Below, piece by piece: positions 666 to 54,234 of a stretch of 64,000 nucleotides of DNA. Source of the stretch: Candidatus Saccharibacteria bacterium CPR2 (GTDB taxonomy: Bacteria > Patescibacteriota > Saccharimonadia > Saccharimonadales > QWHN01); contig QWHN01000001.1 of the NCBI GenBank assembly GCA_021404905.1, positions 194,162 to 258,161 on the forward strand, given 5' to 3'. The translations under genes were made by a program, and so were the position numbers. The first letter of the stretch is position 1. Each line of letters starts with the position of its first letter. Under the pieces are notes generated by a model. The model did no database searches. It had not been told where the DNA came from and saw nothing but the letters and a program-made list of their open reading frames with translations.

Positions 666-2210
666 CTAATCCACCACTCCTTCACTATTTTGAGAAAACC
701 CTGGATTGTCTAATTCATTATCCGCCGGTGAAAATATTATGTTCATTTCTGAGGAATTAATACCGTTTGAATTTAGGTAATCTAACGCTTTTTGCCTGTA
801 AGTTTTGGTGTTCGATACATATTGAGGAAATTGCGAATCTCTATTTAAGATTGCATTAGTGGTAATTAAAAGAGTAGGCTTGTCGCCAAAATGTACAACA
901 TCAATGTTATATTCGTTGTTTTGAGTTGGTAAGCTAGTAGAAATTGTCTCTTCAACCCCACCACTATTATTTGGCTCCAAGATTATTTTATATATCCCAG
1001 TTTCATTGGAGGCATTCCTTCGAGTGGTTATATATATAGCATTCATCTCTGGCGCACTATAAGCATTGGTAATATCATATTCATTAACAGTAGCCTTAAT
1101 AATTCTTTTTGAGTAACCCGAAGACAAATCAAACTTCCACAAACCCTCTTCGTCGGAATAAAGTATTTCAGAACCCGATCGCCAAAACATAAAATGTACC
1201 GGAGAGTGTACTTGTTTTACTATGGCGTTGTTATTGTCTGTGTCGATTACAGTCATTAGGCCTGTATTTGTGACATAAGAGAAATACTTACTATCACCTG
1301 ACCAACTGGCACCAAAAATCGGTGTTTGAAAATCCGCCTTTGCCCCTGTGGACACATTAATAATTGAACTGGTTGAGTTTGCCTCTTCTTGCGCATCGGG
1401 TGTCTCGCTTGCGGAATAAATAAAAATCTTATTGTTCTTTAGCTTGATCTCGTCTATATAACTGGGCACTAAACCTAAATCCTTGGGTTGCTTGTCTTGA
1501 ACCCCGTAAAACACCAATATCCTGCTATCAATAGTTATGACTGCAAAGGAATTATTGTCAGGGTCAACACTAAAGTCTTTGTATCCAATCACATCTCCTT
1601 CGTCCCAATCCCCTTCACGCTCCAGTATAAGACTAGATTTTTCGCTGGTCGCATCAAAGTAATGCAATGAGCCATATTTATCCAGATACAACGAAGAGCC
1701 ATCGTTGAACCATTCCGAATCTTGCACAATGCCATCTCCGCCAATTCGCCTTGGTTGATAATGATTTTTGAGTAATTCATAAAAATAATCGTCGTCACTT
1801 TTTTGATATCGCAGAACATCGTTTGATGCAAAAACACTGTCAGCTTCTTTGTTGATTACAACTTGCTTTTGCGCAAAACTATAAGGAGGAGTGTCCACGA
1901 CAGATTTACTGGAACGCTTCGCACTAATAATAATTTCATTTATTTGCCCGTCTGGTTTCTCGACCCTTATTTCATATTCCCCCGGGCGTACCCGCATATT
2001 GGCATTTTCTTTTTTTATTTCGCTTTGATCACTTATTAATCCATTTTGTGAGAGCCTAGCGACTTTAATAAGCGACCCCTTGTCATGGGTTGTTATTTCA
2101 ATCTTTGCCTTTAGAAAAAAATTATCTATAACTAAAAAAACTATAATCAACACAAGCGTTAACAACACTGCAAAAACAAGTACGCGTTTCTTGTTGCTCA
2201 TACTTTGCAT
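666..2210 (-). CDS. Hypothetical N-terminally membrane-anchored/secreted protein, possibly beta-propeller (PD40/TolB-like repeats)
   Basis: 514-aa ORF with an AGGAGG-type RBS. It has an N-terminal hydrophobic helix (VLVFAVLLTLVLIIVFLVI) and repeat-like segments such as SWSGDSKYFSYV. It is the last gene of the minus-strand T4SS-like operon. Confidence 0.5.
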   Translation of the reverse strand: MQSMSNKKRVLVFAVLLTLVLIIVFLVIDNFFLKAKIEITTHDKGSLIKVARLSQNGLISDQSEIKKENANMRVRPGEYEIRVEKPDGQINEIIISAKRSSKSVVDTPPYSFAQKQVVINKEADSVFASNDVLRYQKSDDDYFYELLKNHYQPRRIGGDGIVQDSEWFNDGSSLYLDKYGSLHYFDATSEKSSLILEREGDWDEGDVIGYKDFSVDPDNNSFAVITIDSRILVFYGVQDKQPKDLGLVPSYIDEIKLKNNKIFIYSASETPDAQEEANSTSSIINVSTGAKADFQTPIFGASWSGDSKYFSYVTNTGLMTVIDTDNNNAIVKQVHSPVHFMFWRSGSEILYSDEEGLWKFDLSSGYSKRIIKATVNEYDITNAYSAPEMNAIYITTRRNASNETGIYKIILEPNNSGGVEETISTSLPTQNNEYNIDVVHFGDKPTLLITTNAILNRDSQFPQYVSNTKTYRQKALDYLNSNGINSSEMNIIFSPADNELDNPGFSQNSEGVVD

Positions 2211-2236
2211 TATAAACCTCCTTCCAACAAATATTG

Positions 2237-4114
2237 TTATGGTAATTTTTCATAGGTTTCATATAATTTTGTAGGCAACTGTATCTTGTCGCTACCTTGT
2301 CTAAATAACGCCTGGTTTTCTGAAGGGCAACTTTCTCGTTTACAGGGTGGCCGCTTTTGTCCGGTGGCGGCATCAATGTGTAAGTGGGCTGAACCGCAGC
2401 CATTGCTTGCGGATCCTACTACGCCAATCTGGTCGCCAGCATTTACAGTTTGACCTTCTGTAACGGTTAGACCGTCAAAGGATAAGTGGAGATAAGACAC
2501 AACTACATCATTCTCTTGATTGTAGACTTCTACTAATCTTCCAGGACACTTATCTTCACCAAAACGCGTAACAGTACCACCTATTGATGCCAAAACTGGG
2601 GTCCCTGGAGTTGCCATAATGTCGTGAGCAGCATATGGATGGCCCCCCTCGCTCATTTTTCCATCTTTAAATTGCCCACCATTTTGAGATTCCATATCTG
2701 CTTTTGTGGTGTCTAGAGGAAACACAAAGTCCCCAGTCCCTACTTGTTGACCACACTCATCAGTAGCGCCTGCTCCCCCAAGCAGAGCCATGATTGTCAT
2801 TGCGCCGGCTTGTTTATTTACTTTTCCCTGAGTGCTACCTGGCTCAGATGCATTGCCTGGCCAAACCATGCCTTCTCCGTCACCCCCAGCATGCTCAGCA
2901 TCATAATAATTCATAGCATATGGTGATGTGTCTGGGTCTTGATTAACCCTCTTGTACATAAATCCTCTATTGTAAGCAACAAAGGCATCGCGCATTTCCT
3001 CAAAACTTGATGTGGCCGTCAATTCAATTCCGTATACCATTTTGGCCATTTCCTTTAAATGTTGTGCTCCGCGCTTATAGTTTTCGGTCTTATCTGTGGG
3101 CCATACATCGTTGCTATCTGGGTTTGATGATCCTAGTGGTTCACCAGAACCAATAGAAGCCCCAGGGTCATTGCCTGCTTCTCTATAATGTAGTGCAGCT
3201 AACATTTGCCATGGTATATTTTCTGCCTCCGCAGCTTCCTGATAATTTGGCTGAAGTTCTTTTATTGTTCCCTCTACTTCACTAAAAAGCTGTTTGCCTT
3301 TATCAGTAACAGAACTTCCGCTGAAATCAGCGGAACCGGCTTGGTTCTCTGGTGTTGTTCCAGCTCCTGGTGAAGGAGTCGCGCCCGGAGTATTTGTAGA
3401 CTGAGTTTTGTTTAGCTCCTCTCTTACCTGGGCCATAAATGTAGCTCCAGGGTCGCTATTACCCGGGTTTGCTTCATAATGACCAAAAACTCCTTTTTTT
3501 CCAGCTCTATCCGCTATATTTTGGATATTATATTTTGCCATTAGTTCTTTCACGACTCCGATTACGGTTTGAAACTGTGTAGGGTTTGAGAGTAGAGCAT
3601 TTTCATCCATGCCCTCAATTTCTATACCAATACTGACATCGTTCCATCCCTGGTCAGCCATAGTTTGCATTGGCCGAGTTTCCAAAGTATTGGTAAGTTG
3701 AAATAACTTTCCAGACGCATTTATAAACAACTGTACCCATCTACCGTTTGGGTAACCTGCTTCAACACGACTCTTTAATACATCAATAAGTTTTGTTGGA
3801 GGATCTCCATAATTATCACCCTGAGTAAAATGGAGCATTATCGCAGTTGGTTTGATCTGTCGCGTTTCTGAAAATGACCCAGTCATTACCTGAGCTTCTT
3901 CCAGAAAGTTTGTGTTTTGCTCATTGGCTGCTTCCGTACTTCCACATTCGTCAATGTCATAAAAATACGTGCCGCCATCATATAGCTTTTTTTGATCTTC
4001 GGACAATACGGCATAAGCAGGGATAGCATTAAAAAATAAGAACCCCAAAGCCACCACTAAAAAAATGACTCGATTTGAATGTTTAAATAAGTTATTCACT
4101 GCCCTGTGCCACAC
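2237..4114 (-). CDS. Secreted multidomain peptidoglycan hydrolase: N-acetylmuramoyl-L-alanine amidase (Amidase_2-like) plus C-terminal M23 (LytM-type) peptidase
   Basis: It has a signal/anchor helix. Amidase_2-like motifs are MLHFTQG, GIEIEG and GHYEANPGNSDPG. M23-like motifs are AAHDI...YLHLS...GSAHLHID. It overlaps the upstream gene by 19 nt. Confidence 0.7.
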   Translation of the reverse strand: MWHRAVNNLFKHSNRVIFLVVALGFLFFNAIPAYAVLSEDQKKLYDGGTYFYDIDECGSTEAANEQNTNFLEEAQVMTGSFSETRQIKPTAIMLHFTQGDNYGDPPTKLIDVLKSRVEAGYPNGRWVQLFINASGKLFQLTNTLETRPMQTMADQGWNDVSIGIEIEGMDENALLSNPTQFQTVIGVVKELMAKYNIQNIADRAGKKGVFGHYEANPGNSDPGATFMAQVREELNKTQSTNTPGATPSPGAGTTPENQAGSADFSGSSVTDKGKQLFSEVEGTIKELQPNYQEAAEAENIPWQMLAALHYREAGNDPGASIGSGEPLGSSNPDSNDVWPTDKTENYKRGAQHLKEMAKMVYGIELTATSSFEEMRDAFVAYNRGFMYKRVNQDPDTSPYAMNYYDAEHAGGDGEGMVWPGNASEPGSTQGKVNKQAGAMTIMALLGGAGATDECGQQVGTGDFVFPLDTTKADMESQNGGQFKDGKMSEGGHPYAAHDIMATPGTPVLASIGGTVTRFGEDKCPGRLVEVYNQENDVVVSYLHLSFDGLTVTEGQTVNAGDQIGVVGSASNGCGSAHLHIDAATGQKRPPCKRESCPSENQALFRQGSDKIQLPTKLYETYEKLP

Positions 4115-7044
4115 CTGTTAGCCATTGGTGCCGGATCCCAGTGCCATGGCTCATATGAATACTGTTTAAATCCAAATGATTCAGCGTTCTTCTCGAGCCA
4201 TACCCATCCCGGGTCTCCTGGAGCTCTAGCTCTCCCACTACAACTAGTTTTTGACCCACTCGCCGAACCTCCCATTTTTCCTCCTCCACCCGTTGCTAGA
4301 AAATCAATGGCGGTACCAGTTTGATGTAGCGATTGCCCTGGTTTAGCACACAAACCTCCATCACCAGTTCCGCCGCACGAATCGGCCAACCTAAAGGAAC
4401 TGGATGAGTTAAGTTGAATACCTTCAGCCTTTGCTTTTTCGCCCAAAGCTTGCCATGCTCCGGAAACCCTGGAATTGACTGTTGCCCCACCTGGCGTTTC
4501 GTTACCACTCGCATCGTTTCCCTCCCCCCCTATGCCACTCAGCCTGCACAAACGTATAACAAGGGGACCCGCGCTCTTTTTTAGGTCTCCGGTGTACTTT
4601 GTCTCCACTACACCCAAATCGGATGTGCCAGCAGCACATGGTACGGAATCTGAATTTTCACCTATGTCGCCTACGATGCCACCATCATTAGTTCCCATTG
4701 CTTCTGAAGAACTGCTTTCTACACCTAAATTCGCGCAAGCGCTATCGTCTATACTCTCATAACAAGCCATTGATTCGGCCACATAGCTGTCCATTACGAA
4801 AAACCTAAATCTTAAATAATCTTCATTATTTCTATCATCAAAACACTGGTCGGGAAGCTTTCTGTAGTCCATTGATTGTCCGGTTGTAATCTTAAATTCC
4901 GGAGCTGGTGACATTGAAATACCGAAACAATCCTTATATTTATCATAGAGATTTTGGATTTGCTCATCGCTCATAGAATTCATATTTTCTATTGGGTTTG
5001 CTACAGTTGGATTATCAAGCTCTTCTAAACTAAAACCATATTTGGAAAAACTGTATTCGTACTCTTCCTGAGCGTGAACCTTTCTTACGAAAGGAAGGTT
5101 TGAAAATGCTGAAGAAAATAATGAACTCGGTGTTTTGAATACGGAAGAGACCATTCCACTGTAAGACACAGGAGCTTGTCTGTAAGCGAAAGACATTAAT
5201 GAACGAGGGTTGGAAAGCGAGAAGGTTCTATACACAAACCCTTGTTCTTTTGCTATTCTGCTTATTTCTGCGTCTCTAACTTCATCCAGTTCAGCGGTTT
5301 CCTCTGGAGTTAATTTTCGCCCTCCTAACGTAACCGCTTGTTCGTTAGCAAATAGGCGCGTCCCGTAATTAAATGCGTTACCAAGGTCTGAACCCGTAAG
5401 GCTTTCAAGGTTGACTAATTTTTTACCAAAAGTTTCTATGACAAAGTCAAGTAACTTGGGAAAGAAAAATGCACCCGCAACTTCACCCAGAACCGTACTT
5501 GCTATTTTCCCTGCTCCGGTAGCAAATTCGGCTGCCGTAACTGCCCACTGAAATGCAGTGTTCTCAACTATTTTACACCCAATGCCCACACCAGGAATTG
5601 AGTTTATTATCTCAAGTACTTTATTTTGCTCGTCAGGGGGCTGTAAGTTTGCTGGCATATCAGGCCCAGTAAGCTCTTGCCCTAATTCCCCTTGTATACT
5701 CCTCGCGTTACTCCATGTCCTTTCATTGGACTCTTTTGATTCATCATAAAGCTTATTGGCGTAATACCCTAAAGAATCTAAATCAATATCATGGCCAGCT
5801 TGCGCCTGACTACCAAGAGCCATAAACTCACCACCCAGACGCATCAGCGGTAAGATTAAGTTTGGGTGAGCTGTAGAATCAATAGCCTCAATAACCCCCT
5901 TAATTGCGCATAAAGCACTGGCGATTCCTACTGCTCCAAGAGCCGCAAATCCACCCTTTTTAAAATCTGATTTTATATCTTCTAGTGTGTCTGGGTTTTT
6001 CGCACCACCAGCCGCTGCATCATCGTCGGCATTTGGTGTTTTGTTTCCGTCCTTATCCTCATCGCCATCCCCAACATAATCTGGTTTATCGTCTGTCTGC
6101 CCATTGGAAAGCGTGTCGTCTCTCTTTTTCTTTATTTTTTCCCAAACGTCAGAAAGCTTTTCATCCACCTTTCTGTCTAACTTTTTAATGGGATGAAGAG
6201 TGATACCAGCCTTTGCTTTCAAGGGGCGTCCTAGCATGGATGAAGCGATGCGGCCAGGGAAGGTCTTTGCCATAAATTTGTTTCTAAATTTGGAGAATTT
6301 TCTAGTAGAAAACATACTCTCGAACTGGGTTCTATCTATGTCTACAGCATTGCCATTAATATCAGCGTCGATATCAAACTCAGATTTAAGTTGTTTTTGA
6401 ATTTCCTCTGGGCTTTTGCCTCCGCTATCAAACGCATCGGGGTCAATTTTGACCTTATCTAAATAACCAGCCCTATTATATTCGAACTCTATTCCACTTG
6501 CCTTAAGCTTTGTTTCGTATCTTGTGGCAATAGCGTTTTGCAAAACAGTAAGTCGCCTGCCAGCCTTGTCGTTTGGATTTCTCATATATCTAATAAGCCT
6601 AGTTCCTCTATTTGCGATGGCTTCGTCATTTGAGAATAAATGAAACTGTTGTAGTAATTGAGAAATGTGAATAAATTGAAGGGGGCCGTGCAAAAAGCTG
6701 AACCCAAACATGGTTAGGCCGACAATTCCGCCACCAATGCCTCCGCCAATGATTTTCTTTTTGTGCCGCGCGTACCATTTTCCGGATTTGCCATCAGAAT
6801 CGTCATCATCTTCTACAACTTTTAATCCAGCATCCCTAGAGCTGGCTCCTCCGCCTTGTCCTTCGCCTTCAATGGAGTGCAGCTTCGCTCCCCGCCCGGT
6901 GTACTTAAAAGAATCTGCTTCCTCCGCTTCCCTCAGGTTACCACTTGGCGTACCATCACCCTTTCCACCCCCATGAATAACTTTTAATTTTGGTCTTTCA
7001 TGCGGGTTAAACTCTGGGTCGTATTTTCTAGCTGGTTCTGCCAT
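4096..7044 (-). CDS. Large membrane protein with a C-terminal VanY/M15-type (LAS) D,D-peptidase domain; T4SS-associated cell-wall hydrolase candidate
   Basis: 982 aa with an AGGAGG RBS. Gly-rich TM segments include IIGGGIGGGIVGLTMFGFSF. The C-terminus carries SLHQTGTAIDF and YEPWHWD, which match the LAS metallopeptidase signature. Confidence 0.6.
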   Translation of the reverse strand: MAEPARKYDPEFNPHERPKLKVIHGGGKGDGTPSGNLREAEEADSFKYTGRGAKLHSIEGEGQGGGASSRDAGLKVVEDDDDSDGKSGKWYARHKKKIIGGGIGGGIVGLTMFGFSFLHGPLQFIHISQLLQQFHLFSNDEAIANRGTRLIRYMRNPNDKAGRRLTVLQNAIATRYETKLKASGIEFEYNRAGYLDKVKIDPDAFDSGGKSPEEIQKQLKSEFDIDADINGNAVDIDRTQFESMFSTRKFSKFRNKFMAKTFPGRIASSMLGRPLKAKAGITLHPIKKLDRKVDEKLSDVWEKIKKKRDDTLSNGQTDDKPDYVGDGDEDKDGNKTPNADDDAAAGGAKNPDTLEDIKSDFKKGGFAALGAVGIASALCAIKGVIEAIDSTAHPNLILPLMRLGGEFMALGSQAQAGHDIDLDSLGYYANKLYDESKESNERTWSNARSIQGELGQELTGPDMPANLQPPDEQNKVLEIINSIPGVGIGCKIVENTAFQWAVTAAEFATGAGKIASTVLGEVAGAFFFPKLLDFVIETFGKKLVNLESLTGSDLGNAFNYGTRLFANEQAVTLGGRKLTPEETAELDEVRDAEISRIAKEQGFVYRTFSLSNPRSLMSFAYRQAPVSYSGMVSSVFKTPSSLFSSAFSNLPFVRKVHAQEEYEYSFSKYGFSLEELDNPTVANPIENMNSMSDEQIQNLYDKYKDCFGISMSPAPEFKITTGQSMDYRKLPDQCFDDRNNEDYLRFRFFVMDSYVAESMACYESIDDSACANLGVESSSSEAMGTNDGGIVGDIGENSDSVPCAAGTSDLGVVETKYTGDLKKSAGPLVIRLCRLSGIGGEGNDASGNETPGGATVNSRVSGAWQALGEKAKAEGIQLNSSSSFRLADSCGGTGDGGLCAKPGQSLHQTGTAIDFLATGGGGKMGGSASGSKTSCSGRARAPGDPGWVWLEKNAESFGFKQYSYEPWHWDPAPMANRCGTGQ

Positions 7045-7056
7045 TTTTACTGCCTC

Positions 7057-8976
7057 CTAAAAAATCTCTCCAGAAGCACCTTGATTGATTACTTGGTTTG
7101 GTTGAGTATTCTGAGAATGAAGATTGGTTGCGAGCTCTTGTATTTGTTGTAACTCGCTAGGGTTAGTAGTGATCAACGACTGTTCTGTTGGAGAAGCGAC
7201 AATCTGTAAATGCACATGGTTTTGCCCGGCGAACAACAAACCTTGACCGACAGGGAATTGGCTAAGACGCTTCTTTTCTTCGCTAGTAAGCTTAAATACC
7301 TCAGCCAGAACATCCACAGAAGAAGTAGACTGCTTCAGTAAAAGCTGCATAGACGAGTTGGCCACAACCGCGCGGCCTAGTTTTGAACCCATAAAATCTT
7401 CAACATCCTGAGAAATTGTAGTCAAACCCAAACTATATTTTCGGGCTCTTTTTGCCAGGCTAAACATAAACTGAGCTGAATCCTCGTAACGCATAAGTTG
7501 CCAAGCCTCGTCTATGATAAGGAGGCGTCTTTTTTGGTCGGTCTTTGTTTTATTCCAAATATAATTTAGGACTATATACATTGCCACAGGGCGCAGTTCA
7601 TCTTCGAGGTCGCGAATGTTAAACACAGCCAAAGAGTTATTGATATCAATATTTGATTGCTGGGAAAATATTCCGGCAAACGTGCCCGATGTGTATTTCC
7701 GCAGTCTTTGCGCCAGTTGCGGGCCAGTTCCCTGCATGTGCAAAAGGGTTTGATAAAGATCATTCATTGTTGGCGGGGGTGTATTGTGAGTAAGCGGGTC
7801 GCTGGTTATTCCTGCTTTAGCATAAGTTTCGATTAAAGCTTGATCTAGGTCTGCTTCTTCAACAGGGCTAAGTGCTGGCCCTAAAGACTCTCCGCCGGAA
7901 AGTTGTGCTTGGGCTCCACCCATCATCAATCTAAGCAACCCGTGCAGGGTGATGAGGTTTGACCTGAGCGCGTTATCTGCCTCTTCTTCGTCAATGACCC
8001 TTGGCAGGTCAAACGGATTGATTCGAGTTTGTGAATTTAAAGACAACCTTACATAAGCACCGCCGACCGCGTCACACAACCTTTGGTATTCATTTTCCGG
8101 ATCTACCACTATTACTTCCGCGCCAAACATCATGGTTCTTAGAGCCTCGAGTTTAACGGCGAAAGATTTTCCGGCGCCGGACTTTGCGAATACTACCGAG
8201 TTAGCATTTTCCAAAGTAAATCTGTCAAAAATCACTAAACCGTTGTTGTGCATATTAATTCCATAAAGAATCCCAGACTCTTGCGTTAAATCCGCGGAGG
8301 TAAACGGAAAGGTAGTTGAAAGGGCTCCGGTATTTAAATTGCGTTTAATTTGCAAAGTGTCAAATCCTTGTGGCGCGGTAGAGCTGAGCCCCTGCTCCAT
8401 CTGGACGGTGGCAGCTTTTGAATAAACCAACTGTTGGCCCAGTATTGTCTCGATTTTATGCTGGATATACTCTAGCTCCTCGAGAGAAAAGGCATAGATC
8501 GTTATATATAAAGCAAACCTAAAAAATCTTTCTTCTCCTACCTGAAGTTTATCGCGAAGCTCCTCGGCATCTTGGATGGCTGCTTGCTTGCCCGGGTCCC
8601 TAACCCTGCCTTTTTCGGAGTCAATTTGTATAGAAGCTTCAAGCTGGCCAACTTTTTTGCGTAAATTCTCAAGTACAATTTGACTTTCAACAGGATATAT
8701 AAACATAGATATATCGGTTTCTTCGTCGATATTTATAAGGGGTGACATCCATCCGGTGTATAGTTGCCTGGGATAGCCGAAAATATAGAGGGTTCTTCCA
8801 TATTTGGTTCCTAGTTTGAAGTGCCCCGACTCGAGCTCTATCGAACTAGGAGCGATGAAATCTCGAAGCGCGGTAATGCCTTTTTGAAACGCTTCCTCAA
8901 CCTCTATTTGCTCACGAGCTCGTTGCTCGGCAGCAACATCAACCGGTTCTGGTTTAACGGATTTAAACAAGCCCAT
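7057..8976 (-). CDS. virB4: VirB4/TraE-family type IV secretion ATPase
   Basis: Walker A is FAKSGAGKSF and Walker B is RRLLIIDEAW. The N-terminal domain is typical of Gram-positive VirB4 (FKLGTKYGRTLYIFGYP). A GAGGGGG RBS precedes the start. Confidence 0.9.
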   Translation of the reverse strand: MGLFKSVKPEPVDVAAEQRAREQIEVEEAFQKGITALRDFIAPSSIELESGHFKLGTKYGRTLYIFGYPRQLYTGWMSPLINIDEETDISMFIYPVESQIVLENLRKKVGQLEASIQIDSEKGRVRDPGKQAAIQDAEELRDKLQVGEERFFRFALYITIYAFSLEELEYIQHKIETILGQQLVYSKAATVQMEQGLSSTAPQGFDTLQIKRNLNTGALSTTFPFTSADLTQESGILYGINMHNNGLVIFDRFTLENANSVVFAKSGAGKSFAVKLEALRTMMFGAEVIVVDPENEYQRLCDAVGGAYVRLSLNSQTRINPFDLPRVIDEEEADNALRSNLITLHGLLRLMMGGAQAQLSGGESLGPALSPVEEADLDQALIETYAKAGITSDPLTHNTPPPTMNDLYQTLLHMQGTGPQLAQRLRKYTSGTFAGIFSQQSNIDINNSLAVFNIRDLEDELRPVAMYIVLNYIWNKTKTDQKRRLLIIDEAWQLMRYEDSAQFMFSLAKRARKYSLGLTTISQDVEDFMGSKLGRAVVANSSMQLLLKQSTSSVDVLAEVFKLTSEEKKRLSQFPVGQGLLFAGQNHVHLQIVASPTEQSLITTNPSELQQIQELATNLHSQNTQPNQVINQGASGEIF

Positions 8977-9066
8977 TCTAATTCCCCCTCTGGGTGTAAA
9001 TTTTCATTTTCCATTCGCTGTACAGCGAACCAATTTTCAAAAACTGCTCCATTAACCAGTCAACAC

Positions 9067-9129
9067 AAACTGAAAACTGAGAACTGAAAACTGAGAACTG
9101 GCCAATGTGATTTGTGATTTGTGATTTCA
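9067..9129. repeat. Heptamer tandem tract of nine in-phase 7-bp units
   Basis: The units read aaactga aaactga gaactga aaactga gaactgg ccaatgt gatttgt gatttgt gatttca. The tract sits in the spacer between the 9133 gene and virB4. Confidence 0.9.
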
Positions 9130-9132
9130 TAA

Positions 9133-14242: not shown

Positions 14243-14486
14243 TTTTTCGTTCCTTATTTAAACTACTAAATATCTTAGGAGCATGCGAAATAAATCGAGC
14301 GAAGTCTTGGCTAAAGACAAGTCTTTGCGATCAATCTCACAAGCCGGCACAAGTAAACCAACCCCCAGAGGTCGAACACATATATTTCTATCACAAAACA
14401 GAGGTAAAGTCAAACGACTATCTATAATTCGCTGAAGACACCCAAAACAATACTAGGGCAGCATAATCACTAGTCCAACCCAGAGT

Positions 14487-15452
14487 TTATCTGCTGTAGC
14501 CTGTTTCGTCTGTGTTGTGAGGAGGATGTGAGGAATATACTAAACGGGGCTTGTTTTTTCTGCGATGGTTTGCAACTTCTGTTTTTGTTATTCTGGTCGC
14601 AACTTCCTGATTGTGTTTTTCTTGAATCGGTATGTCGTCGCCTCTATGTCTTTCATTCGGGGTTTTTGATCGAATGGTAACATCAACAGGACTAATGCCG
14701 ACGAAACCTTCCTGTTTTGTCCAGAGTGGCTCACCCATGCGTCTTCCACGTGCCAAAACAGTTGTTTTCACTAAAGCTCTTTCGGTTTTCTCTCTTCGTT
14801 TTCTGGCTCTTTTTTGTACAAAATCTTCCCCAGTAGTTATCCAAGTGCGAGTAGCTTGATCCTTTGCCTTTTTAAGTTCTCTGTGGGATATTTCACCTTT
14901 TCTGAATTTTTCTCTTGCAGATTTTGTTATTGCTCGTCGAGCTTTCCAAGTCTCAATTCTTTTTACGGGGCCACTTTTTTCGGATCGGCCGACATTTGCC
15001 CACCTTTCGTATTCTTTTGCTTTTGCGAGTTTCTCGGTATCTTTCTCTAATCTTCTGTGTGCTCGTTGTTGATACCGTGTCTCGGGCGCAAGGGTGAGCT
15101 CGGGGTAGTCATTGTCAGTAAGCTTACTCTCAACCCTTGAACGGGCAACATAAAGGAGGTTATCAAAATATTCTTTGTCTTGCTGCGCTTTCTCGGGGTC
15201 AGAGGGGCTAGTTAGCCATTTACCAACTTTCTTGGCGCCGTTTATGGCTCTGTCTATTGCAACCTGGCCTAAAAACTTTTTTTCTTGTTCTTGAAAACTA
15301 TCATTCATTATGTCGGTCATTGGTTCGGTAGCAGGGTCTTGACCAATTTCATTTAACAGAAGCATAGTTGGGCTATGCTCAAGTCCTTGGGGGTTGGTAT
15401 TTTGAGATTCTATTGTCTCTGGGTTGGTAAGTTGTTCTTGACTGTGTGGCAT
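14487..15452 (-). CDS. Hypothetical highly basic (K/R-rich) soluble protein
   Basis: 321-aa ORF inside the T4SS-like operon, with no TM segment and no recognisable motif. Confidence 0.45.
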   Translation of the reverse strand: MPHSQEQLTNPETIESQNTNPQGLEHSPTMLLLNEIGQDPATEPMTDIMNDSFQEQEKKFLGQVAIDRAINGAKKVGKWLTSPSDPEKAQQDKEYFDNLLYVARSRVESKLTDNDYPELTLAPETRYQQRAHRRLEKDTEKLAKAKEYERWANVGRSEKSGPVKRIETWKARRAITKSAREKFRKGEISHRELKKAKDQATRTWITTGEDFVQKRARKRREKTERALVKTTVLARGRRMGEPLWTKQEGFVGISPVDVTIRSKTPNERHRGDDIPIQEKHNQEVATRITKTEVANHRRKNKPRLVYSSHPPHNTDETGYSR

Positions 15453-15551
15453 TTTTGTTTTTGGTTAGTTTAACAACATAATAGCATATTATTGCGCTAA
15501 AGGCAATATTAAGTTTCAGCCAGAGTTTAGGAGTATAAAAACCATCGTTAT

Positions 15552-18482
15552 TTATCGAGGGGGGCCCTGCTGCCCTTCTTCTCCGCCCCGGTTTTGTATT
15601 TCCTCTAATTCATCTTTTCTTAAATCACTTCGATCTATAAGCTCTGGCAGGCCCAGCAATCCAGGCCCGTGAATTTCTTCCGCTGTCTTCTTTATGGCAG
15701 CGATTTCTTGTTTCCCCTTAAGGTTTGCATTTGAGTATACTCCCTCCAAGACAGATCTCCACTGCTTTTCTCCTTCTATATCGCCACTTGACCTTGCTTT
15801 TAGATATGTCTCGCCCATTTCCTTGAAAGACTGTGGTTTCAGCTGTCCAAGTTGGTACTCGGATAGTTTCGCAAAACCTGTTTCTGGACTGTATCCTGTT
15901 CCATTGTTAATTCCTCCGAGGTGAGCTAAACCAGCATTTTTGGCGTTATATTGACCTTGATTCATAAGGTTGGAGTACATTCCATCATCACCACCAGATA
16001 TGCTTCGCGCAGTTCTGGCAAGCTGATTATACCCACCCTCGCCATCCTCAAAATTGTAACCAGATCTTGTCCACATATCATACGCTTGTCGTCTGGCACC
16101 TGCATTACCATATCCTACGCGGGCAGCTGATGCATGGGCTTGTTCCCATATTGCTCGCGAACCCTCGCCATCCTTTTTTATATAATCTTCCATTAATCTT
16201 TTGGCATGACTTGCATTTTCAGCTTGGGCCAGAAGAGCAGCTGCTTTATCGTTGGTCGCTATGGCTTTCATAGCTTCAGTTTCTGCTGACAGAGCTGCTC
16301 TTCTCATTTGCCCTGTTTCCATTGAGGCGCTAATACCCCTTTTGCCTCTCAGCCAACCCTTTGGTCCTGCTGCCAATACACCAACACCCTGACCAAATCT
16401 TTTTCCAATAGCTGTATTACCACCCATAAATCTTGGAAGCTGCCCAGCTTTAATATTAGCACCAGCCATTGCGCGTCGTTCTGCTGACTTTGCCTGGGCG
16501 CGTTTTTTGGCGCCAGCCGACAGCCCGCCACCCATTTTGCTGGCAAATCCTCCGATAGTTGCGATAGCGCCCCCTGCGAATTTGAAAGTAAAGGGAATTA
16601 AGAAAGCAGGCCCGAAAAATAATACTACCGCTACAATCGCGTCGAGGGCGCCTTTGGTATTATCGCTACTAACTGGGCTTGCTCCGGCACCAGTACTGTC
16701 TGAAACCGCCTGGAGTTTGCTAGCCCCTAGAATTTTTCCCATTGTAAGAAATGCTACTATTAGAGGGTACATCATCAAAACTTTCATAAATAAGCTGCTC
16801 CACATTCTGGCAAATCTGTCCGCACTTGGAATCGCCCAAAGCGCTAATGCTACGGGAGATGTTACCACTAGTAAGTATAATATGGATTCTCTAAAGACTA
16901 TGGTAATTATTGCCGCGAAAACAGCGAAAAACGCTGCTATGGCCAAACCAAGCAATGAGATTCCCCCAAAAACAACGCCTATAACTCCAGCCATCAATCC
17001 AGCGAACAACCCAACCTCTCCACCAGCGCTTAAAGATTTTAGGTCAATGTTTAAATTATCTATGCCTCCCCACGGCGCAGCCATAAGACTCTCAATGCCA
17101 CTGCCTAAAACGTTTGTGATATTCACAGCCAAAATACACAAAAAGAAGGAAAGTTGAATAAGAATCGCTGCGATTACCAGGCGCGGTAGCATTTTTTTAA
17201 TAGTATACGCGTCTATAAAGGATGTGGCTTGGCCGAAAATAGCTGCCAAGAAAGCTACTACAAAAATAACATTTGCTAATATCCTAAAGCCATTCCATAC
17301 TTCTTTAACTTTTGGCGCCTCGTCCGCATTGTCCAGACTAAATTCAAGCCGCTCCAGAACTACTTCGTTAATAAAATAATCTACTAATCTGTCCACCAAA
17401 TTTAGAACCGGGCAAAGAACCCAGGACATAGGGCTATTTAAATGAACCTCACAGGTAGGTTTTGCTTCTTCTGGATTTTTCCCACCGGAATCTTGTGAAG
17501 GCAGATCATTTACTCCTGTATCAGTACCGCTGAAACAAGTGGAACTATTAGTTTCCGAAAAGCATTTTGCTTGTTCATCATAAATTATTTTTATAAAACC
17601 ATTGATATACTCATTTTTTTTCTCGGCATAACTAGCGCAACCTACACCTATTAACATCTGATCATCTAATTTCTCGATAGTACCATCTTTGCTATAAGTT
17701 ACGATTTCATTAGTTACAACATTATTTTCTACAGATACAGCAAAGTTTGCCCCGTCTTTTACAACAATAGTTTTGTATGTGCCTCTGCTGTCATTCCCGT
17801 TATCATCACCCGAACCAGCAAACTCTGCACTGTTTTTGTAATATTTGCCCCCGCAAATTTCGGAACGCTTAAATATTTCATCATAGTAGTAGTAGTTTGC
17901 TGCATCGGTCATCTGTGCTTCTAGCTTTTTATCAACTCCTAATACTGAATAATCGGTTCCAGATACTTTTTTAGACAACAGTTTGGTTTCAAGTGCCTTA
18001 TCCAATTCACTTCTACTTTTGAATTTAGAAGGACATGTACCGTCTTTACAATTCTCGTGAGGCCATATGAAATCTATAAATTCATAGTGGCTATTAAACC
18101 CCAGATTCTTCAACAATGAACCAGTATTGCCTGCATCGCTACAACCAATCCGGCCATTTGAATCAGACTCTTTAAACAATAGGCCCAAACTTACAGTATC
18201 CTCTTTCCAAATTCCGCCACTATCGTTGTAGTCGAAGTCTTTTATGTCACGAATTTGAGATGACCCGATAGGATCCACGCAGAAGAAAATTGTTTTATAA
18301 GATTTGTATGTAAGATATTCCCAACGGGCAACATTTTTCATATTCTCATAGGGGTTTCCCTCATAAGCGTATACAGCTTCAGGTGCTAATACGGTGAACA
18401 TAAAGTACATAACAAAAAAAAGTGCAAAAAACACAGATCCAATACTAACTGTGCTGTTTTTCTTTGTCATATAGACTCTCAT
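15552..18482 (-). CDS. VirB6/TrbL-like polytopic T4SS membrane protein, paralog A, with a large Cys-rich ectodomain
   Basis: 976 aa. An extracytoplasmic region of about 340 aa contains many Cys residues, followed by a TM core and a long Gly/Ala-rich C-terminal tail. Blocks shared with paralog B include TCEVHLNSPMSWVLCPVL, WNGFRILANV and KKMLPRLVIAAILIQLSF. Confidence 0.65.
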   Translation of the reverse strand: MRVYMTKKNSTVSIGSVFFALFFVMYFMFTVLAPEAVYAYEGNPYENMKNVARWEYLTYKSYKTIFFCVDPIGSSQIRDIKDFDYNDSGGIWKEDTVSLGLLFKESDSNGRIGCSDAGNTGSLLKNLGFNSHYEFIDFIWPHENCKDGTCPSKFKSRSELDKALETKLLSKKVSGTDYSVLGVDKKLEAQMTDAANYYYYDEIFKRSEICGGKYYKNSAEFAGSGDDNGNDSRGTYKTIVVKDGANFAVSVENNVVTNEIVTYSKDGTIEKLDDQMLIGVGCASYAEKKNEYINGFIKIIYDEQAKCFSETNSSTCFSGTDTGVNDLPSQDSGGKNPEEAKPTCEVHLNSPMSWVLCPVLNLVDRLVDYFINEVVLERLEFSLDNADEAPKVKEVWNGFRILANVIFVVAFLAAIFGQATSFIDAYTIKKMLPRLVIAAILIQLSFFLCILAVNITNVLGSGIESLMAAPWGGIDNLNIDLKSLSAGGEVGLFAGLMAGVIGVVFGGISLLGLAIAAFFAVFAAIITIVFRESILYLLVVTSPVALALWAIPSADRFARMWSSLFMKVLMMYPLIVAFLTMGKILGASKLQAVSDSTGAGASPVSSDNTKGALDAIVAVVLFFGPAFLIPFTFKFAGGAIATIGGFASKMGGGLSAGAKKRAQAKSAERRAMAGANIKAGQLPRFMGGNTAIGKRFGQGVGVLAAGPKGWLRGKRGISASMETGQMRRAALSAETEAMKAIATNDKAAALLAQAENASHAKRLMEDYIKKDGEGSRAIWEQAHASAARVGYGNAGARRQAYDMWTRSGYNFEDGEGGYNQLARTARSISGGDDGMYSNLMNQGQYNAKNAGLAHLGGINNGTGYSPETGFAKLSEYQLGQLKPQSFKEMGETYLKARSSGDIEGEKQWRSVLEGVYSNANLKGKQEIAAIKKTAEEIHGPGLLGLPELIDRSDLRKDELEEIQNRGGEEGQQGPPR

Positions 18483-18615
18483 TCAGAATATTTCTGAATT
18501 GATATTACCAAATACACGCTTATGGTAAAAGTCTAGAATGAGTTACAAAGCAGACAACACCAATCAGACACTGAGCCGTAGGGAACTCAAGTAAACAAGT
18601 TGAATTAAGCTTTCT

Positions 18616-19605
18616 TTACTCGTTGTGGTACGAATATGTATCGTCGACAAGATCGCGTCCAGCAGTTTTCTTCCAATTTCCGTTTTCGTCGCGCATCAAA
18701 GTTTCTGTACTAACCGAATCACTCACAACACGCCCCTCGTCTGGAAGTGATTCGTGATATTGCCGTCTTTCATAATTTGCTGTATATATCAACACTCCCT
18801 CTTCTAAATCAATCTTATCGATGGTTATGTTAAACGTTTTGTCGACGACTCTATATCCCTCATTTGGGTGCTCCTTTAAGAACTGGACATTTTTCAAAGC
18901 ATCTGCGTATCTTCTTTCAAAATCTTGTTGATTGATCTGATAACCCATATCGTGCGTGTAGGTAAAAAACTGTTGATTTGCGGTCATTGCGAAATTAGTA
19001 TCAGCTTCATCTAGTTGCATTATAATGTCATAAGGATCACTTCCTTTTATGTAGTCTGGCTCTGGAGAGTCAATTTCCTGTAATTCTGGGTCGTTAATAC
19101 TTTCCTCTGGTTGCGTAGTGGTTGTTTCTGGAATAGTAGTGCTTGGGCTTACAGTTCTCTCAACGGCTTTGTCTTTGCTATTTACTGCGGATTTGTCAGA
19201 GTCATTGCTTTTTCCGAGAAACCATCCTAACCCAACAGCACCGGCCAGCGCTGCTCCGGCCGTACCAACTGCGATTGCCGCAAGTGGGCCTTTTCTGGTT
19301 TTGCGATCGTTTTGGTAATGTGGACTCAAAATCTCGCCAGGGCTTGAAGGGTGTTCCTCGGTGTATATATTACTATCTGCTTCAGGTTCAACCAATGTTG
19401 CTGTGGCTTCTACACCTGGATTATTACCAAATTCAACCGTACCCGTGCCGTTGTCATTAGAATTTACGGCCCAAGCCTCACTTTCCGCTTGATTTCCCAG
19501 CGGATATCCATTATCTTTTATTCTTGTGTCTGCTCCAGGGATTTGAATTGCTTGATCGGCGTTTTCTTCATTACCTAGAGGAGGCACGTTTAAGTTTGAT
19601 TCCAT
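18616..19605 (-). CDS. Bitopic membrane protein; VirB8-like role is possible from topology only
   Basis: I chose the start at Met8 because it has an AAGGAAG RBS. The protein has an acidic N-terminus, one TM helix (LAAIAVGTAGAALAGAVGLGWFL) and a C-terminal globular domain of about 150 aa. It is the first gene of the operon. Confidence 0.4.
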   Translation of the reverse strand: MESNLNVPPLGNEENADQAIQIPGADTRIKDNGYPLGNQAESEAWAVNSNDNGTGTVEFGNNPGVEATATLVEPEADSNIYTEEHPSSPGEILSPHYQNDRKTRKGPLAAIAVGTAGAALAGAVGLGWFLGKSNDSDKSAVNSKDKAVERTVSPSTTIPETTTTQPEESINDPELQEIDSPEPDYIKGSDPYDIIMQLDEADTNFAMTANQQFFTYTHDMGYQINQQDFERRYADALKNVQFLKEHPNEGYRVVDKTFNITIDKIDLEEGVLIYTANYERRQYHESLPDEGRVVSDSVSTETLMRDENGNWKKTAGRDLVDDTYSYHNE

Positions 19606-19670
19606 TAAACATCTTCCTTTTTTCAATGCGCTTTAATTATACCATATTAATGCTTAAAATCCAATACCAA

Positions 19671-19697
19671 AATGCGTGGATTTATCCATAGCGCATT
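19671..19697. promoter_or_regulatory. Imperfect 27-bp palindrome in the divergent control region between the T4SS operon and the pilin array
   Basis: The sequence aatgcgTGGATttATCCAtagcgcatt has inner arms TGGAT/ATCCA and outer arms aatgcg/cgcatt. It sits in the 125-bp divergent gap. Confidence 0.3.
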
Positions 19698-19751
19698 TGA
19701 TAATTGCACTAAACCCCAGTAATATAAAAGCGTAATTGTTTCTTTATAAAA

Positions 19752-20180
19752 ATGAAAAATATTATTTCGGTTTTGATAGTTTCCTTCGGGATGTTTTTTG
19801 TGCTGAATTTTGGGTTGGTGGCAAACGCTGGTTCTATCCAGGCTGTGCATCAATATGGAGTATTTAATCCAGACAATTGCCCAAAAGACGGTGCCCAAGT
19901 TCCAGTTGAACAGAATTGTATAATCACCGAAATCCTGGTGCCGATAGTAAGATTTTTATTAGTTGGGGTTGGGGTTGTTGTCACGGTTATGATCGTACTT
20001 GGCGGGATTCAGTACTTAACATCAGAAGGCAATCCTCAACGAATCGCGGCGGCGAAGTCAAAAATAATGAATGCACTCATCGCTCTTTTAATCTGGGCAT
20101 TTATGGGCTTAATCCTAAACTGGCTGATTCCTGGTGGCATACTTAATATTGGTTTGGGTAACGACATTCCTAATCTATGA
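19752..20180 (+). CDS. T4SS pilin (VirB2/TrbC-like), paralog 1
   Basis: It has a signal peptide, a Cys pair (NCPKDG...QNC) and two TM helices joined by GGIQYLTSEGNPQRIAAAKSKI. The stop overlaps the next start (ATGA). Confidence 0.7.
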   Translation: MKNIISVLIVSFGMFFVLNFGLVANAGSIQAVHQYGVFNPDNCPKDGAQVPVEQNCIITEILVPIVRFLLVGVGVVVTVMIVLGGIQYLTSEGNPQRIAAAKSKIMNALIALLIWAFMGLILNWLIPGGILNIGLGNDIPNL

Positions 20181-20779
20181 CTATTCAACCTTTTGTACTA
20201 TTTGCTCAGCAGTGCGCCGATAAATCTATATTTGGCATTCCAACCTGGTATAAATATTTAAACTGTACAAATGGTGTCCCCGACATAGACGCGACCACCC
20301 AGGAGGGGCTTAACTCTGTTTGGCTTATAGGCGCCGCGGTGCTTGAGATGTTAATGGTTGTGGTGGGTATTGCCTCTGTTGCGATGATAATCTACGCCGG
20401 TTTAAAATTTATTATGAGTCAAGGCAACCCAGAACACGTCAAACAAGCTCGTGATACCATTTGGAATGCGATAATTGGGCTTGGAATCGCGTTGATCGCC
20501 TCAAACTCTGTGTCTTACGCTGCCAATCAACTTTATGGAAAGCCTGCGGACCAAAGCACAATAACGGCTGTTATTTTACCTTTTGTGTTTCGTCTGGCCG
20601 GCGCCCTGGCGGTGCTGTACATAGTTATATTCGGCGCCCTCAGATACATTATGTCTGGCGGCAATCCTAACGACACCAAACAGGCAAGGGACGCGATAAT
20701 TTATGGATTAATAGGCATAGCCGTAATAGTCACGGCTTATTTAATAGTTCAATTCGTAGTTGGGAGGCTTACCTCGTGA
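20177..20779 (+). CDS. Tandem-duplicated T4SS pilin carrying two VirB2-like modules in one ORF, paralog 2
   Basis: The pilin motif occurs twice: YAGLKFIMSQGNPEHVKQARDTIWNAIIG and FGALRYIMSGGNPNDTKQARDAIIYGLIG. There are four TM helices and an N-terminal Cys pair. Confidence 0.7.
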   Translation: MTIQPFVLFAQQCADKSIFGIPTWYKYLNCTNGVPDIDATTQEGLNSVWLIGAAVLEMLMVVVGIASVAMIIYAGLKFIMSQGNPEHVKQARDTIWNAIIGLGIALIASNSVSYAANQLYGKPADQSTITAVILPFVFRLAGALAVLYIVIFGALRYIMSGGNPNDTKQARDAIIYGLIGIAVIVTAYLIVQFVVGRLTS

Positions 20780-21180
20780 GAGCTTTTCGTATATTTTTTT
20801 TGATCTTTAGCGCCTTTATAATTTTCGCTATGTTTAATAATGTTTCGCGCGGTGTAGTTTTTGCTCAAGGTCCGGAATTTCAGGAAATTTGCAATAGAGC
20901 CCCAGACCCAAAACCGGATTTTTGTAATAACCCAAACTCTGGAAAAGATCCACTCACAGGCAAGGACGGCATAATTACCAAAGCTACTCAAACAATGGTT
21001 TACCTCGTGGGTGTTCTTTCTGTAATTATGATAATGATTGCTGGCATTAGATTTGTTATGTCAAACGGCGACCCAGCCGGAGTTAAAGGGGCCAGAGACG
21101 CCCTGCTATACGCTGTGATTGGAATAATTATCGGATTTTCGGCACAACTTTTGGTTTGGTTTGTGCTAAGGAGATTATAA
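20776..21180 (+). CDS. T4SS pilin (VirB2/TrbC-like), paralog 3
   Basis: A GTG start overlaps the previous stop, with a GGGAGG RBS. The motif is AGIRFVMSNGDPAGVKGARDALLYAVIG, and the Cys pair is EICNRAPDPKPDFC. Confidence 0.7.
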   Translation: MRAFRIFFLIFSAFIIFAMFNNVSRGVVFAQGPEFQEICNRAPDPKPDFCNNPNSGKDPLTGKDGIITKATQTMVYLVGVLSVIMIMIAGIRFVMSNGDPAGVKGARDALLYAVIGIIIGFSAQLLVWFVLRRL

Positions 21181-21182
21181 AA

Positions 21183-21494
21183 ATGAGAGTACAAGATTTT
21201 TTCGCCGCTTCAAAAGATACAATTTGCAAAGGTATTGGTGTGGGCGGAGGTGATTGCAATAATCCTGGCGGAATTGGCCCTGTTATAAGTAAGGTGACCA
21301 CCGCGATTGCATTTGTCGTGGGGGGTATTTCGATAATAATGATTATTGTCGGTGGAATTCGGTATGTTATGTCTGCTGGCGATCCCAACGGCGCAAAAGG
21401 CGCGAAAGATACCATCATGTATTCGCTAATTGGTTTGGTGATCGCTATTGCTGCCTACGCAATTGCCAACTGGGTTGTCGATATAGTTACTTAA
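21183..21494 (+). CDS. T4SS pilin (VirB2/TrbC-like), paralog 4
   Basis: I chose the ATG at 21183 because it has an AAGGAG RBS. The motif is GGIRYVMSAGDPNGAKGAKDTIMYSLIG, and the Cys pair is ICKGIGVGGGDC. Confidence 0.7.
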   Translation: MRVQDFFAASKDTICKGIGVGGGDCNNPGGIGPVISKVTTAIAFVVGGISIIMIIVGGIRYVMSAGDPNGAKGAKDTIMYSLIGLVIAIAAYAIANWVVDIVT

Positions 21495-21539
21495 CTGTGA
21501 TATATTGAAAATAAATAAACATTAGCATTTAGGAGGCAT

Positions 21540-21959
21540 ATGATAAGCTCAGTAATCAAAAATCGCACGATCCGCAAATCTGTATTTGTGTCACTTTTTG
21601 CGTCTGGCCAAATAGTTTTAAACTCTGCTTCTGTATTCGCGCAAACTGCCAAGGAAATCTGTGAAGGCAGTGGTGGCACATGGGATGGTAGCCAGTGTGT
21701 TAGAGATGGCGACCCGGGTTTGTTTGGCCCGGGCGGTTTATTTGAAAAAATAGCCAACGCGTTGCTATTTATAGTCGGCGCGTTGTCTGTGGTGATGTTG
21801 ATTGTTGGCGGTATACGCTATGTTACCTCGGGGGGCGACTCCAATGCGGTTCAAGGCGCGAAAAACACAATTTTGTACGCGATAGTCGGGATTGTAGTTG
21901 CCTTTCTAGCCTTCGCGGCTGTTAATTGGGTGATAAACGCTCTTGGGGCAACTTCTTAA
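21540..21959 (+). CDS. T4SS pilin (VirB2/TrbC-like), paralog 5
   Basis: It has an AGGAGG RBS and a signal peptide. The Cys pair is EICEGSGGTWDGSQC, and the motif is GGIRYVTSGGDSNAVQGAKNTILYAIVG. Confidence 0.7.
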   Translation: MISSVIKNRTIRKSVFVSLFASGQIVLNSASVFAQTAKEICEGSGGTWDGSQCVRDGDPGLFGPGGLFEKIANALLFIVGALSVVMLIVGGIRYVTSGGDSNAVQGAKNTILYAIVGIVVAFLAFAAVNWVINALGATS

Positions 21960-22018
21960 ATTATGGTATATTCTATATGAGTAAAAATTGTTATAATCCA
22001 CGCTAAGGAGAATAAGAT

Positions 22019-22420
22019 ATGACCATAAAAGATAAACTCAAAGTCCATTCAATAACAGGAGCAACTACCGTTGCTGGTGTTTTAGCTTTAAGCAATGGAG
22101 TAAGCGCGCAATGCGATCCATCAAGCGGTAGTATTGGTCAGGGCGTACAGTGTGCGAAACCAAAAGGCGCAGCTGAAGAATTATTCGGTGATGGAAGTAT
22201 ATTTCAAACAATAACCAACGCGCTGTTATTCTTGGTTGGAGCTATATCTGTGGTAATGCTGATCGTTGGGGGCGTCAGGTACGTAGTCTCTGCTGGTGAT
22301 CAAAATGCGGTTCAAGGCGCGAAAAACACAATTTTGTACGCTATAGTCGGTATTGTGGTTGCCTTTCTAGCCTTCGCGGCTGTTAATTGGATCACAACTT
22401 CTCTGGCAGAAGGATCCTAA
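22019..22420 (+). CDS. T4SS pilin (VirB2/TrbC-like), paralog 6
   Basis: It has an AAGGAG RBS. The Cys pair is QCDPSSGSIGQGVQC, and the motif is GGVRYVVSAGDQNAVQGAKNTILYAIVG. Its 3' end is nearly identical to that of paralog 5. Confidence 0.7.
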   Translation: MTIKDKLKVHSITGATTVAGVLALSNGVSAQCDPSSGSIGQGVQCAKPKGAAEELFGDGSIFQTITNALLFLVGAISVVMLIVGGVRYVVSAGDQNAVQGAKNTILYAIVGIVVAFLAFAAVNWITTSLAEGS

Positions 22421-54218: not shown

Positions 54219-54234
54219 GTAATTATTTCCTAAC

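Follow-up and report, generated by a model that had tools for sequence, protein, structure and literature searches.

Type IV secretion systems (T4SSs) of the kind considered here have been described in TM7x and across Saccharibacteria (McLean 2020, PMC7427843). In Southlakia epibionticum, the genes SEML1_0006-0019, pilins included, were identified by transposon sequencing (Tn-seq) as essential for growth on the host; the absence of coupling and relaxase proteins was noted, and DNA transfer was judged improbable (Wang 2023, PMC10633639). A survey of 2,474 virB4 genes identified a monophyletic Patescibacteria VirB4 clade related to MPF-FATA, with TrsD, PrgI and VirB6, VirB2 arrays of 2-11 genes, scarce relaxases and a location near dnaA in several classes (Quinonero-Coronel 2025, PMC12102498); a 2025 review repeats these findings. 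Here, a locus at positions 666 to 22,420 of a 64,000-nucleotide (64 kb) stretch of Candidatus Saccharibacteria bacterium CPR2 (GCA_021404905.1, contig QWHN01000001.1, positions 194,162 to 258,161), hereafter the window, is compared with these systems. The locus is a rediscovery of the system described between 2020 and 2025 and provides one more well-resolved example of it, not a new kind. Judged from sequence comparison, it is very probably a vertically inherited Saccharimonadia T4SS that derives from monoderm MPF-FATA conjugation machinery and has been re-used for an epibiotic lifestyle. A preliminary description of the same DNA had proposed a chromosomal, non-conjugative machine derived from a T4SS, an interpretation that matches the literature, in which a non-conjugative reading has been published (PMC10633639, PMC12102498).

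The locus occupies the same place by dnaA-dnaN-recF as SEML1_0004-0019 of S. epibionticum ML1 and shares its order of terminal exported proteins, hydrolase, large M15-ended protein, VirB4, TrsD-like protein, PrgI, VirB6, a slot and a further VirB6, together with a divergent array of six pilin genes of which the second is double-length in both. Nevertheless, the two loci differ in several respects. The hydrolase modules are lysozyme-like and cysteine peptidase in S. epibionticum and Amidase_2 and M23 in the window; the slot holds one NTF2-like gene in S. epibionticum and two genes here, for proteins of 201 and 321 amino acids (aa); the window has an extra gene before the pilins, for a 329-aa bitopic protein; and PEGA and other small proteins of S. 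epibionticum stand against one fused 514-aa PEGA-like/propeller protein in the window. Furthermore, hsp20 and comF, which with a tRNA-Ser gene flank the pilin array in S. epibionticum, are no longer adjacent to it here. Relative to the Patescibacteria-clade T4SSs in general, which are chromosomal and combine VirB4 with TrsD, PrgI/VirB3, VirB6 and a VirB2 array and no relaxase (PMC12102498, PMC7427843), nothing essential differs: the window has both the single operon by the dnaA-dnaN-recF region and the adjacent divergent VirB2 pilins. The MPF-FATA T4SSs (CTn2/CD1110, pCF10 Prg, pGO1 Trs) share with the locus the VirB4 family, PrgI, TrsD-like and VirB6-type proteins and multidomain wall hydrolases, and VirB7/9/10 and VirB11 occur in neither. 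These systems differ from the window locus, in which genes for a type IV coupling protein (T4CP), a relaxase and a PrgB-type adhesin are all missing in cis. The locus is moreover a vertically inherited part of the chromosome, and it possesses VirB2-type pilins, which the monoderm systems are without.

Gene content and inheritance of the locus

Gene families were judged in open reading frames (ORFs) of at least 100 aa across the 64 kb, and the absences reported below apply to the window. Eleven minus-strand genes (666-19605) stand opposite six plus-strand VirB2-type pilin genes (19752-22420), in agreement with the layout first proposed, but the 125-bp divergent gap of that layout is start-dependent: it measures 125 bp from a TTG start at 19626, which gives a protein of 336 aa, and 146 bp from an ATG at 19605, which gives 329 aa and is the start chosen in public gene calls. 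The divergent intergenic region (19606-19751) presumably contains the promoters of both operons, and promoter and terminator scans of this gap were not above shuffled expectation. Minus-strand junctions are mostly short or overlapping, as in the 19-bp overlap at 4096-4114 and the 12 bp between 7044 and 7057, and the pilin genes overlap by 4 bp at two junctions. The left boundary is formed by the 3' part of recF (1-660, plus strand, 220 codons, cut by the window start), which is convergent with the locus, has an uninterrupted translation and an SMC_N match, and is 76% identical to the RecF of the sister species. The right boundary is formed by argS (22562-24283), convergent with the pilin array.

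VirB4 has more than 8000 homologs, of which the best 120 are 75-81% identical, the two closest excepted, and the informative source names of these 120 are all Saccharibacteria/Saccharimonadales but one (Ca. Nomurabacteria). The related loci used for comparison are the best 80 genome loci (74-81% identity), nearly all from metagenome-assembled genomes of Saccharibacteria/Saccharimonadales. In every related Saccharimonadales genome with full flanks (40/40) the locus lies beside recF, and the order is the same: pilins, divergent VirB6 (one or two), PrgI, TrsD-like protein, VirB4, large protein, hydrolase, then one or more small or propeller proteins and the convergent recF. In the sister species, dnaN and dnaA come after recF. 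Identity to the sister species is 93% for VirB4, 81% for the second VirB6-like paralog (VirB6b), 80% for the TrsD-like protein and 75% for PrgI, and for the housekeeping proteins ArgRS, RecF, MFS and VIT1 it is 73-85%. Given this synteny and a VirB4 that is more conserved than housekeeping genes, the T4SS locus is a vertically inherited core locus and not an integrative and conjugative element (ICE). No family of coupling protein (VirD4/TcpA), relaxase, VirB11 or integrase was matched by any window ORF in the size range examined, as the preliminary description had stated; an oriT would be recognisable only via its relaxase family.

Given that VirB4 belongs to the conjugation-type CD1110 family and that the segment 11090-22522 is bracketed by a 94-nt direct repeat, it could be argued that the locus is part of an ordinary ICE whose T4CP, relaxase and integrase lie just beyond the window. 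This scenario is extremely improbable for several reasons. First, the locus is held between recF (and then dnaN and dnaA in the sister species) on the left and argS on the right, at the same position and in the same order in all relatives with full flanks. Second, the GC content of the window is uniform and VirB4 is conserved above the housekeeping genes. Third, in the published survey relaxases occur in only 103 Patescibacteria genomes, with 15/109 near virB4 (PMC12102498). Finally, the bracketing repeat, the only one found, leaves virB4 outside. Its two copies (11090-11183 and 22429-22522, 91% identical, the latter between the last pilin gene and argS) were considered as att sites and rejected, because they are members of a dispersed intergenic family of seven copies, termed here REP-like (repetitive extragenic palindrome-like). 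The proposal of a chromosomal, non-conjugative machine is upheld by the same boundaries, synteny, composition and VirB4 conservation, along with the lack of mobility genes.

The VirB4 ATPase (7057-8976, minus strand, 639 aa) is of CD1110/MPF-FATA type, with a Walker A motif AKSGAGKS at residue 264. It scores 374 bits against NCBIfam conju_CD1110 (cutoff 325) and matches Pfam P-loop_TraG (2.5e-28) as well as AAA_10; its nearest solved structure is PDB 4AG5 (E 1.5e-47), and a match to CedB is sub-threshold only. As first proposed, VirB4 is the sole NTPase of the locus, its Walker A being the only convincing one among the locus proteins; in the 982-aa protein described below, the sequence AFDSGGKS (residue 204) was judged a chance occurrence because no hydrophobic strand precedes it. 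Adjacent to VirB4, a TrsD-like protein (9133-10077, minus strand, 314 aa; NCBIfam TrsD 3.9e-9) is encoded in 80/80 related loci. It aligns to positions 11-119 of the CD1110 profile and VirB4 to positions 173-732, indicating that the 314-aa protein contains, as a separate polypeptide, a homolog of the VirB4 N-terminal segment that is absent from the 639-aa VirB4. The PrgI/VirB3-like membrane protein (10106-11032, minus strand) has 308 aa from its ATG, the ORF reaching 337 aa if extended to a TTG at 11119, and contains two transmembrane (TM) helices; its Pfam score is 43.6 bits (cutoff 27; E 4.3e-11).

Six pilin genes lie on the plus strand at 19752-20180, 20177-20779 (a double pilin), 20776-21180, 21183-21494, 21540-21959 and 22019-22420, and 6/6 exceed the gathering score of T4SS_pilin (PF18895). 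Together they contain seven pilin domains, with pairwise identities of 21-53%. The second gene (20177-20779) encodes a tandem double VirB2 domain of 200 aa, and the second pilin of S. epibionticum, at 186 aa, is double-length too, so the fusion appears conserved. The preliminary assignments of VirB4, of a VirB4-N-like protein, of PrgI/VirB3 and of the pilins are backed by these hidden Markov model (HMM) matches, the VirB4, TrsD, PrgI and T4SS_pilin domains, like those of the hydrolases, being above cutoffs or significant.

For the two VirB6-like paralogs the outcome was mixed. Paralog B (VirB6b; 11187-13616, minus strand, 809 aa) has a signal anchor, a short outer domain, about six TM helices and a long C-terminal domain, and paralog A (VirB6a; 15552-18482, minus strand, 976 aa) has about six TM helices and, at the N-terminus, a hypervariable, Cys-containing outer domain (about 365 aa). 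Their paralogy (32% identity over 377 aligned positions, E 3e-50), the shared topology and precomputed Pfam TrbL_3 matches (E <= 1e-5) on DNA-identical copies of both support the assignment. Direct scans for TrbL, however, were sub-threshold: hmmscan gave E 1.4 for the 809-aa protein and no match for the 976-aa protein, TrbL was reached at E <= 0.01 in 5/36 orthologs, and a profile of the 36 orthologs returned only noise from PDB sequences.

Haplotypes, variable proteins and exported hydrolases

Public assemblies contain two haplotypes of a 5.5-kb block of the locus (13637-19153). The block of the window is haplotype A, and its haplotype-B counterpart lies at 2720-8876 of contig L082. Haplotype B is carried by contigs L082-L084, L087, L091 and L095, which share the breakpoint 19153/19154 and come from several independently assembled runs, the L082 contig being present in at least 20 samples. 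The flanks of haplotype B are 99.5% identical to window positions 19154-21872 and 100% identical across VirB6b (11135-13625). Within the block, the bitopic protein next to the pilins has 329 aa in haplotype A and 356 aa in haplotype B, the first 152 residues being 97% identical and followed by an unrelated outer domain; haplotype B has an extra gene, for a 157-aa TM protein that looks NTF2-like, where haplotype A has none; VirB6a is 47% identical between the haplotypes; the slot encodes a 321-aa basic ORFan in haplotype A and a 329-aa Fic-MerR protein with an intact HPFIDGNGRTAR motif in haplotype B (Fic 8.6e-25 and MerR 3.6e-17 in L082); and the 201-aa protein of haplotype A has a 79% identical counterpart in haplotype B.

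The VirB6a identities are confined to the TM and C-terminal part, over which haplotype A is 61% identical to the sister species and 47% to haplotype B; the outer domain is not alignable with either. Relatives of the haplotype-B outer domain and of the 157-aa protein, 24-30% identical, were found only in distant Saccharimonadales, which suggests that the haplotype-B block may have been imported by recombination. Saccharibacteria are naturally competent according to a 2025 review. Such within-population cassette haplotypes go beyond the published accounts compared here, which describe pilin variability (McLean 2020; Quinonero-Coronel 2025). A doubtful possibility is that 13637-19153 acts as a recombining 'specificity cassette', whose exposed parts would govern host range or the specificity of contact, or would escape recognition by the host or by phage, and whose slot would hold strain-specific cargo.

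The slot protein of the window (14487-15452, minus strand, 321 aa, pI 9.8) is a basic, predicted soluble ORFan with two hits in all, and one distant relative only, among 1.84 billion representatives; its sister-species ortholog, split over two contig ends, is 47% identical. Beside it is encoded a 201-aa bitopic protein (13637-14242, minus strand). The 329-aa bitopic protein (18616-19605, minus strand), 100% identical to DYH10_01155 of Ca. Saccharibacteria bacterium CPR2, begins with an acidic segment on the cytoplasmic side, crosses the membrane once and ends in a variable alpha+beta outer domain of about 150 aa. Orthologs of the 201- and 329-aa proteins are confined to their own species group. 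Against 40 related loci, jackhmmer searches that started from the 201-, 321- and 329-aa proteins or from domains of haplotype B yielded nothing beyond borderline matches of the 157-aa protein, and single-sequence Pfam searches of the ORFans at relaxed thresholds gave just weak propeller and TrbL matches. The ORFan claim made earlier therefore stands in part: the 201-, 321- and 329-aa proteins (the last counted then as 336 aa) are lineage-restricted, but the 514-aa protein is a conserved component. A VirB8 role for the 329-aa protein was also considered. Its topology is VirB8-like, with the N-terminus in, one TM helix and an alpha+beta outer domain. An AlphaFold2 model of the outer domain, built from two sequences only, reached a predicted local distance difference test score (pLDDT) of 50; the weak Foldseek matches of this low-confidence model were mostly NTF2-like folds at TM-scores of about 0.25-0.30, and a sequence-profile search of the PDB with the outer domain gave no match.

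Given that the slot is strain-variable, the 321-aa protein is more likely an accessory or cargo protein than a structural part. In the sister species VirB6b and PrgI are separated by a BrnT/CopG(BrnA) toxin-antitoxin pair (L081 3834-4375) in the opposite orientation, at the site where in the window the REP-like element at 11090-11183 is located. This insertion indicates that such slots also collect accessory genes, and that the 321-aa protein need not be structural.

Fic proteins are classic T4SS effectors, as in the Bartonella Beps and VbhT. The occurrence of unrelated soluble proteins between the two VirB6 genes in different haplotypes, one of them with an intact Fic motif, thus counts in favour of effector export, in which proteins encoded in the variable slot would reach the surface or interior of the host bacterium with no coupling protein involved, in the manner of Bordetella Ptl and Brucella VirB; effector delivery is also preferred in published speculation. 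In those two systems, which have been used as analogies (McLean 2020), small Sec-exported proteins are encoded beside an apparatus that has no coupling protein. Nevertheless, effector export, although a serious rival, is somewhat unlikely. The Fic protein also has a DNA-binding domain of MerR type, typical of cytoplasmic regulators and toxin-like accessory genes; the BrnT/BrnA pair shows that slots may simply gather accessory genes; the gene in the equivalent slot of S. epibionticum, SEML1_0012, is non-essential; and the proteins have no known secretion signal. Furthermore, Ptl and Brucella VirB are diderm systems that keep VirB11, which is absent from the window, and the small proteins of the window are VirB2 pilins and not toxin subunits.

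Two genes 3' of virB4 encode hydrolases, and their domains were matched by Pfam as first described. The VanY/M15 membrane protein (4096-7044, minus strand, 982 aa) has its peptidase at the C-terminus (residues 900-969) and a position equal to that of SEML1_0007, which itself has a Hedgehog/DD-peptidase C-terminus; homologs come after virB4 in 27/80 loci. The wall hydrolase (2237-4114, minus strand, 625 aa) combines a signal anchor, Amidase_2 (residues 88-223) and an M23 endopeptidase (496-583), and the N-terminal Amidase_2 module is missing from the sister-species ortholog. Across 27 related loci, these two genes keep a fixed position while their wall-hydrolase domains are exchanged between lineages (Phage_lysozyme2, M23, VanY, GDSL, Amidase_2, Amidase_3, SLT, glucosaminidase, CHAP and others).

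Next to recF is encoded an anchored surface protein (666-2210, minus strand, 514 aa) with a TM helix at residues 10-28, a PEGA-like segment and a TolB/PD40-like beta-propeller. The earlier propeller-like designation is borne out by a family profile built from related loci, which matches the TolB propeller at E 3.8e-7; the PEGA-like segment, with invariant G77 and Y79, was called by eye and by analogy with SEML1_0005. Word-index homolog searches with the 329- and 514-aa proteins returned only two to three close relatives each. With jackhmmer, 24 ORFs were recovered for the 514-aa protein, nearly all at the recF-proximal position of related loci. An AlphaFold2 model of this protein (three sequences, pLDDT 48) was not used.

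Dispersed elements and neighbouring genes

The REP-like element is an AT-rich palindromic intergenic sequence that spans about 55-94 nt and repeats internally with a period of 14 nt. Where chance would give 0, the 64 kb contain seven copies (11090-11183, 22429-22522, 25068-25150, 29211-29266, 33430-33485, 47342-47390 and 58472-58527), with hairpin z-scores of -3 to -6, and public short-read contigs end at these copies. The pilin array is adjoined by hsp20 in 36/80 related loci and by comF in 22/80. In the window, hsp20, comF and tRNA-Ser are located about 35 kb away (56265-58527), and the direct neighbour of the pilins is argS, an arrangement shared with the sister species. The presence of REP-like copies at both junctions, that of the pilins with argS and that on the hsp20-comF side, suggests an inversion of about 36 kb.

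The other window genes are housekeeping genes, including argS, valS, groEL, Mur ligases, tsaD, pgi, pgm, transporters and five tRNA genes (four tRNA-Ser and one tRNA-Arg); nine window ORFs have no Pfam match. The dihydroorotate dehydrogenase ORF, if taken at its longest (53103-54320, GTG at 54320), runs at its 5' end into one of these tRNA genes, tRNA-Ser(cga) at 54235-54326, and its true start is therefore probably further downstream. A second beta-propeller protein (62408-63868, 486 aa) is YNCE/lactonase-like by sub-threshold matches and has no apparent link to the T4SS locus.

Possible working of the system

A conserved engine, consisting of VirB4, the TrsD-like protein, PrgI and VirB6b, contrasts with fast-evolving exposed parts. 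On the basis of homology, VirB4 may act with the TrsD-like protein and dock on PrgI/VirB3 and the two extended VirB6 proteins. From the six VirB2-type pilins this complex, powered by VirB4, would build a pilus or tube via a VirB3/VirB6 channel, and the amidase, M23 and M15 hydrolases would open the peptidoglycan of the cell itself or of the host. An exposed contact surface could be formed by three variable parts, the anchored TolB-like propeller protein, the 329-aa bitopic protein and the outer domain of VirB6a. Lacking both a relaxase and a coupling protein in cis, the system would not serve conjugation, and material would instead be exchanged with the host cell.

H. pylori ComB and archaeal Ced have a VirB4-type protein as sole motor and no coupling protein or relaxase, and are chromosomal DNA importers with a housekeeping-like role. 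The combination of a sole VirB4-type motor with no T4CP, VirB11 or relaxase also holds for the locus within the window. Given that these VirB4-only relatives are importers, and that Saccharibacteria are without synthesis of nucleotides, amino acids and lipids, uptake of host macromolecules or nutrients through a pilus-channel is tentatively favoured over effector export. A 2026 preprint, which reports host-directed tubular structures where the two cells meet and the consumption of host RNA, points the same way.

Two further possibilities concern the pilins. A competence-type DNA uptake system, ComB-like and feeding ComEC, would accord with VirB4 as sole ATPase beside VirB2-like pilins and with the presence of comF and hsp20 beside the pilin array in the related loci counted above. 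It is, however, highly improbable, given that competence in S. epibionticum relies on type IV pili and ComEC, and that comEC is dispensable there and the T4SS essential. ComB is moreover a diderm system with a B7, B9 and B10 core that feeds ComEC, and the kinship of ComB and Ced with the window locus is at the level of the VirB4 superfamily only. Alternatively, the pilins could form an adhesive fibre that holds the host, essential for that reason and with no translocation. The multiple divergent pilins and variable outer domains suit adhesion or recognition, and there is no substrate-recruiting ATPase in cis. This too is improbable, given the conservation of two VirB6 channel subunits and of an arsenal of hydrolases, and given that two type IV pilus systems already serve adhesion and motility in Saccharibacteria (PMC12206443).

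Several points weigh against an inherited T4SS working as an uptake machine. A coupling protein is possibly encoded outside the window, as in S. epibionticum, whose T4CP-like genes SEML1_0142 and SEML1_0293 are far from its T4SS, and the 5,713 VirD4 homologues reported in Patescibacteria are mostly distal to virB4 (PMC12102498); the statement that no coupling protein exists is therefore established for the window only. The VirB6 assignment, the least well supported of the family assignments, leans on precomputed matches and topology, the direct scans being below threshold. No VirB8-like fold was demonstrated, Foldseek of the 329-aa model against the PDB being without a match at E <= 1e-3. The function of the T4SS is termed 'completely unknown' in the field (PMC11665869). 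Finally, the haplotype-B Fic protein and, by analogy, the T4CP-less exporters Ptl and Brucella VirB would fit effector export equally well.

Among the few machines known to be indispensable when Saccharibacteria grow on a host is the T4SS, as shown by Tn-seq in S. epibionticum only. The cassette and the interchangeable hydrolases mark the parts that are likely to touch the host, namely the outer domain of VirB6a, the bitopic (329-aa) and propeller (514-aa) proteins and the hydrolases themselves, and these candidates provide concrete targets for experiments on host range and on the interface between the two cells.

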